Positions 36,184-43,698 of a stretch of 64,000 bases of DNA are shown piece after piece. Position 1 is the stretch's first letter. Each line of letters starts with the position of its first letter. The notes beneath the pieces were generated by a model. That model had not been told where the DNA came from and ran no database searches. It saw only the letters and a list, made by a program, of their open reading frames with translations. A program made the translations under genes and the position numbers. Origin of the DNA: Oligoflexales bacterium (GTDB lineage: Bacteria; Bdellovibrionota_B; Oligoflexia; Oligoflexales; RGVZ01); NCBI GenBank assembly GCA_044375465.1, contig JBILMN010000002.1:20633-84632 (forward strand). The letters are read 5' to 3'.

Positions 36184-36537
36184 ATGAACCCTTACATTCC
36201 TGTGTTAATCGTTTTGATCTTTGGTTTGACGCTGGGGGCAATCCTGAGCGCACTTGCCGCGTTTATGGGGCCTCGCAACCCTCGTCCCGAAAAGAATGAT
36301 CCGTATGAGTGTGGTGTTCCTAAGGTGACCAATGCCAACGAGAAGATGAGCGTGAAATTTTATCTCACGGCGATCTTATTTATCCTTTTTGATATCGAAA
36401 CGATTTTCCTTTACCTGTGGGCCAAAGCATTCCCACAGCTCGGTTGGTTCGGAGTGGTTGAAATCATGGTGTTTATGTTCATCTTGGTCGCTGGCTATGT
36501 CTATGTTGTGAAACGAGGAGCACTGGAATGGGATTAA
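36184..36537 (+). CDS. nuoA: NADH-quinone oxidoreductase subunit A
   Basis: MNPYIPVLIVLIF...DPYECG...FDIETIFLY; AGGTGG RBS; the ORF track start at 36079 is too far upstream. Confidence 0.92.
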   Translation: MNPYIPVLIVLIFGLTLGAILSALAAFMGPRNPRPEKNDPYECGVPKVTNANEKMSVKFYLTAILFILFDIETIFLYLWAKAFPQLGWFGVVEIMVFMFILVAGYVYVVKRGALEWD

Positions 36538-37622
36538 CGGCAATTGGTTTGACGGCTAATGAATTTACAGTGCAATTTATCGCGACGCTGATCAAGTTTG
36601 CGATTGTCGCTGGCATCCTCTTGCAGCTCCCTCCAGTCATGGTCTGGATTGAACGCCGCGTTCCGGCGATGATGCAGCGCCGCAAGGGCCCCAATCGGGT
36701 TGGTTTGTTCAACTGGCGTCTTTATGGTCTCCTGCAGTCTTTGGCTGATACGATCAAGCTGATTTTCAAGGAAGAGGTTGTGCCGGAGGGGGCTCAAAAA
36801 GCCTTCTATCACCTGGCTCCGGTGTTTTCGGTATTTCCGGCTTTTTTAATTGCCATGGCAATCCCCTATGGTCCTGACATCCAAGCCTTTGGATTCACGA
36901 TACCTTTGTCAGTGATTCGGGTTGATGTGGGATTTCTTTTTATCTTCGCCGTGAGCTCCCTGGCTGTCTACGGCATCACGATTGCTGGGTGGGCCTCAAA
37001 CAACAAGTACTCCCTGCTGGGATCTCTGCGGGCGTCGGCTCAGATGATCAGTTACGAGATCCCGCTGGCAATGTCGTTAATCCCACCGGTTCTTATTTAT
37101 GGCTCTCTCGATCTCAACAAAATAGTGGAAGCGCAGTCCCACGTCTGGCAATGGGGCGTCTTTCTTTCGCCGATCTCATTTTTGTTGTTCTTGATTGCCA
37201 TGTTTGCGGAGACTAACCGTGCACCGTTTGATCTTGCCGAGGCTGAGGGCGAGTTGGTGGCTGGTTTTCACACGGAATATACGTCGGCGAAATTTGCGGC
37301 GTTCTTTTTGGGCGAGTATGTGAGCATGTTTGTTATGAGCTGCCTGATATCGACGGTGTTTTTTGGCGGTTGGCAGGTGCCTTTTTTAAACGTGATGGCA
37401 CTGGACCAGATTGTTGGTCTGCCTGGTGTCGGGGCTTTCGTTGGTTTTCTGTCCCTGCTGATGAAAGCTGCTTTCTTCATGTGGGTCTACATTTGGGTGC
37501 GCTGGACGGTCCCGCGGTTTCGCTATGACCAGCTCATGGGCTTGGGTTGGAAGTATATGATTCCTTTGGGGTTGATTAATGTCGTATTGACTGCGGTTGT
37601 TCTGGCCGCAGTCCGGTTTTGA
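36528..37622 (+). CDS. nuoH: NADH-quinone oxidoreductase subunit H
   Basis: WIERRVPAMMQRRKGPNRVG...LLQSLADTIKLIFKEE; overlaps nuoA by 10 nt. Confidence 0.95.
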   Translation: MGLTAIGLTANEFTVQFIATLIKFAIVAGILLQLPPVMVWIERRVPAMMQRRKGPNRVGLFNWRLYGLLQSLADTIKLIFKEEVVPEGAQKAFYHLAPVFSVFPAFLIAMAIPYGPDIQAFGFTIPLSVIRVDVGFLFIFAVSSLAVYGITIAGWASNNKYSLLGSLRASAQMISYEIPLAMSLIPPVLIYGSLDLNKIVEAQSHVWQWGVFLSPISFLLFLIAMFAETNRAPFDLAEAEGELVAGFHTEYTSAKFAAFFLGEYVSMFVMSCLISTVFFGGWQVPFLNVMALDQIVGLPGVGAFVGFLSLLMKAAFFMWVYIWVRWTVPRFRYDQLMGLGWKYMIPLGLINVVLTAVVLAAVRF

Positions 37623-37638
37623 GGGGGGCTCTGCGGTT

Positions 37639-42187: not shown

Positions 42188-42198
42188 GGAGTGATCAG

Positions 42199-43698
42199 GT
42201 GAACTTTCAAGTCCCCCAACTGACCTTGGCATTTTACGGATCAGCGTTTCCGATTCTGCTTTTGTGCGTATCCGGAGTCATCGCGCTGATGATGGGTGTC
42301 AGCAAAAATTGCAATGCGGCAAAGACAAATCATTATTTCAATACTATCTCACTTGGCATCTGTTTAGTGGCATTGATGAGGCAGTATGCGATCTCTGGTG
42401 CAGCGAATGAGGTGTTTTTAAGCGGCGGTTTTATTGCCGGCCGGCTTGGTTTCTTCGCCCAAGGCTTGATCATCGGCATCGCGCTCGTCGTTTCGCTGTT
42501 GATGTTCGCAAGTCATATCAGAGAAAAATTCTTCCGCGGCGAGATCATCGCCCTATTCCACATGGTGCTTGCCGGAATGTTGACGATGGTCGCGACTGAT
42601 GATGTTGTAACCCTTTTCATCGGGCTTGAATTGGCCTCGATTGGGGTTTATGCCCTGATCGGCTACGTTAGCCCAAATAAACTGTCGCAAGAGGGTGCGA
42701 TTAAATATTTCGTTTTGGGTTCGATCGCTGCTGCGATCTTGTTGTTTGGTTTCGCGTTCCTCTACGCAGCCACGGGCTCCCTTCGAATCAGTGAAATCAG
42801 CGCGGCGATCGGCAAGATTAGCGGTCACTCATGGATTGAATTGGGTGCTATTTTGGTGGTGGCTGGCATTGGGTTCAAAATGGCCCTTGTTCCCTTTCAC
42901 ATGTGGGCGCCGGATGCTTATGAAGGGGCTCCAACCGGGTTGACAGCGTTTATGGCCACGGCAATGAAGACCATGATCATGGTGGCTGCGATCCGTCTTT
43001 TTGAACACGGTTTAGACGGTGTTCACGGTGTTTGGATCCCGGTCTTTGGATTTATGGCAGCGGCCTCATTACTTTTCGCCAATATCATGGCGTTGGCACA
43101 ACAAAGCGTAAAGCGAATGCTGGCCTATTCATCCATTGCGCATAGCGGTTATATGGCACTCGCAGTCACAGCCATGGGTGGTAGTGCCACTCAGTACTCA
43201 ACTCCATCTATCATTGTGTATTTAATTTCCTATGTTCTAGTGAGTTTAGGCGCCTTCGCCGTTTTGATGTGGCTTGAGAACGAGCGGTGTGAAAACATTA
43301 TCATCGACGATTTGACGGGACTCTCCAAAACAAACCCCTACGCGGCGTTCGCTCTGGCGGTTTTTATGTTTAGTTTGGGTGGGATGCCGCCGACGGTTGG
43401 ATTTATCAGCAAACTCTATGTGTTCAATGCCGCATTAAGTAACAACCTTGTGGCCCTGGTCGTGATCGCTGCCGTTGGGTCGACGATCTCATTGTATTAC
43501 TACATGAGAATCATCGTCCGTATGTTTATGATGGATGCCACACCAGTGCTTGGCTCATTGATCAAGCCAACCCGTTCGTGGGTGACAACTGCAGTTGTGA
43601 CGATCGCTGTGGTTTTGATTGTGGTACTGGGTACGGTCCTTCCTGAACCCATGCTGCGCGTTGCGCGGCATACGGCAGGAGAGATTACGGGCGGATGA
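42199..43698 (+). CDS. nuoN: NADH-quinone oxidoreductase subunit N
   Basis: (GTG start) 499 aa; GLELASIGVYALIGY, FKMALVPFHMWAPDAYEGAPT. Confidence 0.94.
   Translation: MNFQVPQLTLAFYGSAFPILLLCVSGVIALMMGVSKNCNAAKTNHYFNTISLGICLVALMRQYAISGAANEVFLSGGFIAGRLGFFAQGLIIGIALVVSLLMFASHIREKFFRGEIIALFHMVLAGMLTMVATDDVVTLFIGLELASIGVYALIGYVSPNKLSQEGAIKYFVLGSIAAAILLFGFAFLYAATGSLRISEISAAIGKISGHSWIELGAILVVAGIGFKMALVPFHMWAPDAYEGAPTGLTAFMATAMKTMIMVAAIRLFEHGLDGVHGVWIPVFGFMAAASLLFANIMALAQQSVKRMLAYSSIAHSGYMALAVTAMGGSATQYSTPSIIVYLISYVLVSLGAFAVLMWLENERCENIIIDDLTGLSKTNPYAAFALAVFMFSLGGMPPTVGFISKLYVFNAALSNNLVALVVIAAVGSTISLYYYMRIIVRMFMMDATPVLGSLIKPTRSWVTTAVVTIAVVLIVVLGTVLPEPMLRVARHTAGEITGG

Follow-up and report, generated by a model that had tools for sequence, protein, structure and literature searches.

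A membrane-arm nuoAHJKLMN operon in an uncultured Oligoflexales bacterium, probably one half of a split respiratory complex I

The genes of the proton-pumping NADH:quinone oxidoreductase (complex I, NDH-1) do not always form a single operon, and Bdellovibrio has been cited as an example of a 'split' nuo operon (Degli Esposti, 2015, PMC4758237). According to Tan et al. (2026, PMC13147790), every member of the Bdellovibrionota, whether predatory or not, has nuoAHJKLMN at the same chromosomal position; the phylogeny of this cluster tracks that of the 16S rRNA, and predatory strains carry another nuo cluster. In Peredibacter the latter comprises all 14 genes in one operon, with only 37.5-41.5% identity to nuoAHJKLMN, and in the other Bdellovibrio and like organisms the genes are split and NuoC is fused to NuoD (Tan et al., PMC13147790). 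In the iCH457 model of B. bacteriovorus HD100, the reaction NADH17pp needs 13 genes from two clusters, Bd3886-92 and Bd3080, 81, 83-86 (PMC7529429, supplement), and bd3891 bears the label 'NADH dehydrogenase I chain H' in the supplement of the HD100 RNA-seq paper (PMC3627812). It can be surmised from the count of 7 + 6 = 13 that the second HD100 cluster would hold nuoB, CD, E, F, G and I. Here we describe a nuoA-H-J-K-L-M-N cluster in a stretch of 64,000 nucleotides (the window) of an Oligoflexales bacterium, taken from contig JBILMN010000002.1 of assembly GCA_044375465.1. A preliminary description of this DNA, made from the sequence, had implied that such a membrane-arm-only cluster was new. 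This does not hold, since nuoAHJKLMN has already been reported phylum-wide in the Bdellovibrionota; the arrangement is known for the phylum and the window adds another uncultured member.

In the reading that we propose, and to which we give a probability of roughly 85%, this cluster encodes the membrane arm (P-module) of an otherwise ordinary complex I whose genes are split. The assignment of consecutive open reading frames (ORFs) to Pfam and NCBIfam families yields seven tightly packed genes on the + strand, at 36184-43698, and confirms the gene content first described:

36184-36537, + strand: nuoA, 117 amino acids (aa); PF00507, 120 bits
36528-37622, + strand: nuoH, 364 aa; PF00146, 386 bits
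37639-38193, + strand: nuoJ, 184 aa; PF00499, 121 bits
38217-38519, + strand: nuoK, 100 aa; PF00420, and NF004320 above its cut-off
38534-40549, + strand: nuoL, 671 aa; TIGR01974, 718 bits (cut-off 407) over residues 2-669, with PF00662, PF00361 and PF01010
40634-42187, + strand: nuoM, 517 aa from the ATG at 40634; TIGR01972, 604 bits (cut-off 264)
42199-43698, + strand: nuoN, 499 aa, GTG start, ribosome-binding site (RBS) AAGGAG; TIGR01770, 387 bits (cut-off 333)

The model NF004741 likewise passes its curated cut-off, as do TIGR01974, TIGR01972, TIGR01770 and NF004320. The junctions were checked by direct reading of the sequence. The nuoA gene starts at the ATG at 36184, behind the RBS AGGTGGA, and ends with the TAA at 36535-36537, while the ATG of nuoH lies at 36528, which gives an overlap of 10 nt; nuoH ends with the TGA at 37620-37622 and the ATG of nuoJ follows at 37639, after a gap of 16 nt. 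Both values agree with those given at the outset, and because of this overlap and this gap no remnant of nuoB, C, D, E, F, G or I is present. The claim that the peripheral-arm genes are cleanly excluded and not degraded is thus borne out by junctions that leave no room for them, and by a tblastn search in which three independent probe sets (from a deltaproteobacterial metagenome-assembled genome (MAG), Pedobacter and E. coli K-12) found none of NuoB/C/D/E/F/G/I in the 64-kb window (best E 0.09). The remaining spacers are equally short for J-K (23 nt), K-L (14 nt) and M-N (11 nt). The start of nuoM was placed at the ATG at 40634, and not at the upstream TTG at 40595 of the longest ORF, on account of its RBS and of the N-terminus MQFINSH. 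The canonical nuoA-N operons of E. coli, T. thermophilus, M. smegmatis and P. denitrificans (structures 7Z7S, 4HEA, 8E9G and 8QBY) share all seven membrane subunits with the window, but B, C, D, E, F, G and I, absent here, are interleaved among them, with nuoA and nuoH separated by 3-7 kb and nuoI between nuoH and nuoJ.

The seven proteins appear to be functional subunits of complex I; their identity to the E. coli proteins is 29-43%, and the functional residues and the NuoL extension are kept. Near-invariant columns, defined as those conserved in at least 95% of the orthologues encoded in canonical, undivided operons outside the phylum, are kept in 68 of 68 cases in NuoH, 12 of 12 in NuoK, 112 of 115 in NuoL, 36 of 38 in NuoM, 35 of 38 in NuoN and 13 of 14 in NuoA, and the departures from them are common to all Bdellovibrionota relatives. 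NuoJ was judged through its alignment with the E. coli protein, the canonical sequences being too few to define invariant columns. The lineage-specific substitutions at positions conserved at 95% or more include P to L at residue 78 of NuoA, F to L at residue 142 of NuoM and V to A at residue 240 of NuoN, together with F to C, Q to M and Y to H at residues 340, 646 and 653 of NuoL, two of which lie in its C-terminal region.

A second set of residues, numbered by the E. coli operon as reference, comprises positions taken to be functional from the mutagenesis and structural literature on E. coli and T. thermophilus; their conservation itself was computed. The window keeps D82, E144, D178, K229, H254, H334, H338, K342, K399 and D400 in NuoL, E144, K234, K265, H322, H348 and E407 in NuoM, E133, K158, K217, K247, H305 and K395 in NuoN, and E36 and E72 in NuoK. 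The same is true of E36, R37, D63, E71, E157, D213, E216, E218, E220, E228, R291 and R293 in NuoH, of K46, E51, D79 and E81 in NuoA, and of Y59 and V65 in NuoJ. These proton-pathway and quinone-site residues are conserved in the four closest related loci (L001-L004) as well. Two listed positions, neither of them invariant, were set aside: D563 of NuoL, which is Lys in the window, and E80 of NuoJ, which is Gln. The C-terminal extension of NuoL, with its lateral helix and terminal transmembrane (TM) helix, is present (PF01010 at residues 467-619), and NuoL can be aligned over its whole length with NdhF of 6HUM. Against the closest relative, the nonsynonymous divergence (dN) is 0.04-0.16 across the seven genes; the values for a few nuoA pairs are meaningless owing to alignment offsets. 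Synonymous sites are saturated (proportion of synonymous differences, pS, of ~0.8), and for this reason no numerical dN/dS is given. Judging from these divergences, purifying selection acts strongly on each of the seven genes.

The structural comparison bears on the question of what this membrane arm is coupled to. The nearest solved structures are complex I/NDH-1 chains (8E9G, 4HEA, 8QBY, 7Z7S and 6HUM), with 8E9G_H and 4HEA closest to NuoH, and Mrp antiporter structures score far lower. Since NuoH and NuoA, which build the quinone chamber with NuoB and NuoD, are fully conserved, we argue that the membrane arm still docks a standard quinone-binding module (Q-module). The preliminary description had considered a different electron-input module instead, and the proposition can be extended to a stand-alone Mrp-like cation/proton transporter, in either case acting independently of NuoB/C/D/I. 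In its favour, related membrane modules are known to use other inputs, as in Fpo, cyanobacterial NDH-1 and the Campylobacter enzyme (PMC4453560), and for the non-predatory Bdellovibrionota only the nuoAHJKLMN cluster is mentioned by Tan et al. (PMC13147790). The contig is also devoid of any peripheral-arm gene. Nevertheless, the Mrp and Fpo family models fall far under their cut-offs (346 against 1050 for FpoL and 291 against 937 for MrpA), whereas the Nuo models pass theirs. NuoH and NuoA are absent from Mrp antiporters, but both are present in the window, with every conserved residue kept, including the acidic TM5-6 loop of NuoH, which shows no departure from canonical complex I. Furthermore, no candidate partner is encoded adjoining the cluster, and Fpo, cyanobacterial NDH-1 and the Campylobacter enzyme all still retain homologues of NuoB/C/D/I. 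We therefore regard a non-Nuo partner or a stand-alone transporter as highly improbable for this locus, although in lineages reported with only nuoAHJKLMN the module might serve a different input module.

The position of the cluster in related genomes was examined by a NuoH scan with one genome per species, from which the best 80 genome loci were considered, and by a protein search, of which the best 120 matches were considered. The divergent gene upstream, which marks a conserved chromosomal site and is taken as context and not as a member of the complex, is the following:

35063-36091, - strand: gpsA, NAD(P)H-dependent glycerol-3-phosphate dehydrogenase, 342 aa; NF000942, 385 bits, with PF01210 and PF07479

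NuoH is 86% identical in Bdellovibrio sp. ZAP7 (L001), 83% in a MAG labelled 'Polynucleobacter' (L002), 77% in an Oligoflexales MAG (L003), 68% in a further MAG (L004) and 62% in an Oligoflexales chromosome (L005), after which the matches among the best 80 loci come from other phyla with at most 51% identity. The best 120 protein matches grade continuously from 96% to 64%, so that NuoH identity within the group runs from 96% to 62%, a gradation with taxonomy that supports orthology to the Bdellovibrio cluster. The divergent gpsA followed by nuoA-H-J-K-L-M-N is found in L001-L004, and the same layout occurs in L087/L088 and L089/L090, where NuoH identity is 64-66%. The comparison of synteny suggested in the preliminary description thus finds the gpsA-nuoAHJKLMN layout in all eight related Bdellovibrionota assemblies that can be read through the cluster, with the set of seven genes, their order and the divergent gpsA unchanged in each. 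The order is the same up to nuoL in L081 and in a Joint Genome Institute contig, which are further assemblies of the organism studied here. All 75 of the loci from other phyla among the best 80 are canonical, with nuoA and nuoH 3-7 kb apart and nuoH and nuoJ/K separated by ~0.7 kb. It follows from the recurrence of the layout in relatives and from the canonical order elsewhere that the arrangement is a stable lineage trait and not an assembly artefact. The exact window proteins are on record in metagenome-derived assemblies only, and the organism, which is Bdellovibrio-like, is accordingly considered uncultured.

Two of these relatives deserve a separate comment. On the chromosome L005 (OY282434.1, 9639-13687), only nuoA and nuoH are adjacent and are followed by convergent ccmH/ccmF; nuoJKLMN is not found within 10 kb, which means that the cluster is further fragmented there while the A-H pairing persists. 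The contig L002 (CAYOEM010000008.1), labelled Polynucleobacter, shows synteny with the window for more than 15 kb; its proteins (gpsA, nuoA-N and the ABC-2 operon) are 60-94% identical to those of the window, except for the DUF4340 protein, at only 48%. It is almost certainly, on the basis of this similarity, a Bdellovibrio contig placed in the wrong bin.

One feature sets the window apart from the other Bdellovibrionota loci, and it is located in the spacer between nuoL and nuoM:

40555-40604, no strand: perfect tetranucleotide repeat (TTGA)12.5 in the nuoL-nuoM spacer; 100% matches and a score of 100 in Tandem Repeats Finder

The presence of this repeat accounts for the length of 84 nt of the spacer, which measures ~25-30 nt and lacks the repeat in the closest relatives; to judge from this comparison, the repeat is lineage-specific. 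It is the sole tetranucleotide repeat of at least six units within the window and, because its period is four, it places TGA stops in all three frames. Two other short-read assemblies of the same organism stop at or just past (TTGA)n, L081 ending inside it, which suggests that the copy number is variable or that the repeat is hard to assemble. These breaks between nuoL and nuoM are what could be put forward for a gene order produced by the fusion of non-adjacent regions, a possibility raised in the preliminary description as well. However, breaks at microsatellites are typical of short-read assemblers, and the A-H and H-J junctions, together with the L-M adjacency, recur in no fewer than eight assemblies made independently from various samples and species (L001-L004, L087/L088 and L089/L090 with the same order). 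An assembly artefact is hardly credible under these circumstances.

It was also considered that the cluster could be an additional paralogue of the membrane arm, residing beside a complete nuoA-N operon and supplying a P-module that would be alternative or accessory. Peredibacter provides a precedent, with nuoAHJKLMN and a complete 14-gene operon that share 37.5-41.5% identity (Tan et al., PMC13147790). In marine actinomycetes (Salinispora, Streptomyces SM17/SM18 and Kocuria flava), an extra operon of the form nuoA-(hypothetical)-HJKLMN accompanies the full one (PMC6676996). The latter resembles the window in being confined to the membrane arm and in its order A...H-J-K-L-M-N, but it is an additional copy and has a hypothetical gene between nuoA and nuoH (PMC6676996), whereas nuoA and nuoH overlap by 10 nt in the window, whose cluster would be, by analogy with HD100, the sole membrane-arm set. 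Since actinomycetes are missing from both the best 80 genome loci and the best 120 protein matches, the two partial operons are probably of independent origin. A paralogous copy is further disfavoured by the model of HD100, a strain of the genus nearest to the window, which lists a single set of membrane subunits, in the counterpart of the window cluster (PMC7529429), by the 83-87% identity of the window NuoH to Bdellovibrio-type sequences, and by a constraint as strong as expected of an essential single copy. The suggestion in the preliminary description of a partial paralogue next to a full 14-gene operon therefore finds a parallel in Peredibacter but no indication in Bdellovibrio, where one membrane-subunit set is listed, and we consider it improbable for the organism studied here.

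We return to the split complex I, in which the hydrophilic arm would be encoded elsewhere, as the preliminary description had proposed as one of its two options. This part of the proposal is consistent with the literature on Bdellovibrio, with the two clusters of HD100 and with the conservation of NuoH and NuoA; as regards the genome itself, one contig was read. The exact NuoH and RpoA proteins were located on a contig of up to 85.4 kb, and the gene lists of the source contig (85,407 bp) contain no nuo genes beyond either window end, the flanking genes there including thioredoxin, RNase HII and methyltransferases. A NuoD search was made with L029, a 'Deltaproteobacteria' MAG with a complete operon that is not a close relative (gpsA 36% identical), and it returned mostly fused NuoC/D proteins of 565 aa. 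Two contigs from this search were considered as the partner cluster and rejected, their gene order L-M-A-CD-E-F being unrelated. The ENA metagenome contigs L082 (6110-13534) and L083 (6116-13532) carry another unusual order of complex I genes, nuoL-nuoM-nuoA-nuoCD-nuoE-nuoF, with a fused nuoCD of 565 aa, with nuoB missing between A and CD and with unrelated genes past F; the fused C/D family is large.

The elements that border the cluster on either side can be described as follows:

36092-36183, + strand: gpsA-nuoA divergent spacer, 92 nt; presumed promoter and leader
43707-43753, no strand: bidirectional intrinsic terminator, perfect 22-bp hairpin with a 3-nt loop

The preliminary description found no convincing promoter motif between gpsA and nuoA, and a consensus scan agrees, with no sigma-70-like site in the 92-nt spacer; a possible extended -10 element, TGtTATTTT, lies at 36147-36155. 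The placement of a promoter in this spacer is thus presumed. An Rfam scan found no leader RNA. A block TTTACCAGA-N8-9-CAGGTGGA at 36153-36180, directly before the nuoA start, is kept in L001 and L002 only, the spacer being otherwise variable among relatives, from ~30 to ~440 nt. This block could be a -10/leader element plus the RBS. As a shared regulatory motif it was discarded, because it is not enriched in the window (three matches with at most one mismatch, a number equalled by 17 of 100 shuffles). At the other end, the terminator is as strong and as bidirectional as first described: the hairpin has an A7 run on its 5' side and a U7 run on its 3' side, with a centroid energy of -31.8 kcal/mol (z = -4.76), and none of 200 shuffles folds as well. 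It is located 8 nt past the nuoN stop and 21 nt past the stop of the convergent DUF4340 gene. The descriptive points of the preliminary description are therefore all confirmed, including that of a compact cluster set between a divergent gene and this terminator.

Beyond the terminator lies a convergent operon encoding DUF4340, GldG-like, ABC-2 permease and ABC ATPase proteins (43775-48536). This ABC-2 transporter operon, gpsA and the genes for a MoCF-domain and an NMO-family protein make up the neighbourhood of the cluster. The downstream side is a second point of difference from other Bdellovibrionota split operons, in that the distant relatives have lgt in place of the DUF4340/ABC-2 operon. 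In L087 (17214-18041) and L089 (17075-17836), the gene after nuoN, in the same orientation, is lgt, which encodes prolipoprotein diacylglyceryl transferase. Elsewhere in the window, a pair of genes for a type IIB topoisomerase is found on the - strand at 29393-32676, between mfd and an NMO-family gene; one encodes a topoisomerase VI A/Spo11-like protein (PF04406 and PF21180, 389 aa) and the other a topoisomerase VI B subunit of 696 aa with a GHKL ATPase and a PF09239 transducer domain. Type IIB topoisomerases are uncommon in bacteria.

On the reading that we prefer, the locus would make the seven hydrophobic subunits of complex I, with NuoA, H, J and K forming the base of the quinone tunnel and the E-channel, and NuoL, M and N, the first with its C-terminal extension, acting as the three antiporter-like pumps. 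One transcript would cover all seven genes, beginning in the gpsA-nuoA spacer and stopping at the bidirectional terminator, and translational coupling is suggested by junctions that overlap or are very short. The soluble arm, comprising NuoB, a fused NuoCD and NuoE, F, G and I, would be encoded in this organism at a second, distant locus, for which the pairing of Bd3080-86 with Bd3886-92 in B. bacteriovorus HD100 serves as the model, and it would dock onto NuoH and NuoA to give a 13-subunit enzyme. Several points weigh against this proposition. The one contig read for this organism, 85.4 kb in its longest version, does not contain the partner locus, and the NuoD search from L029 retrieved a nuoB-CD-E-F-G-I locus from no Bdellovibrio relative. 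The assignment of Bd3080-86 to the peripheral arm comes from counting and from the statements of the papers, not from sequences. In Peredibacter, of the same phylum, this cluster is accompanied by an operon with all 14 genes (Tan et al., PMC13147790), so that a second full set may exist in the present organism too. Lastly, no sigma-70-like promoter was found before the cluster.

At the evolutionary level, the two divergent clusters of Peredibacter hint that the membrane and soluble halves may have different origins. It can be hypothesised that the Bdellovibrio enzyme is a chimera, in which the vertically inherited P-module of the phylum has been combined, through reciprocal gene loss, with the peripheral arm of a second, horizontally acquired nuo operon of the kind that Peredibacter would still have in full; we put this forward tentatively, as an unlikely scenario. 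Such a natural hybrid would be notable because recombination of subunits between complex I clades is rare (Spero et al., 2015). A division of complex I genes between two loci is also known in the myxobacteria, likewise former Deltaproteobacteria, where the clusters are nuoEFJKLMN and nuoIHGDBA (PMC2330069). The myxobacterial split ignores the boundary between membrane and soluble subunits, whereas that of the Bdellovibrionota follows it exactly, matching the limit between the membrane-inserted subunits and the cytoplasmic iron-sulphur subunits.

For the annotation of genomes, a locus with only nuoAHJKLMN in the Bdellovibrionota should be read as half of a split enzyme, and not as a degraded or exotic complex. 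The arrangement lends itself to studying how a pair of operons that are not linked hold a 1:1 stoichiometry in the assembly of complex I, a modest question that is already approachable in the cultivable B. bacteriovorus HD100. It would acquire more specialist interest only if the two halves prove to be of different evolutionary origin.

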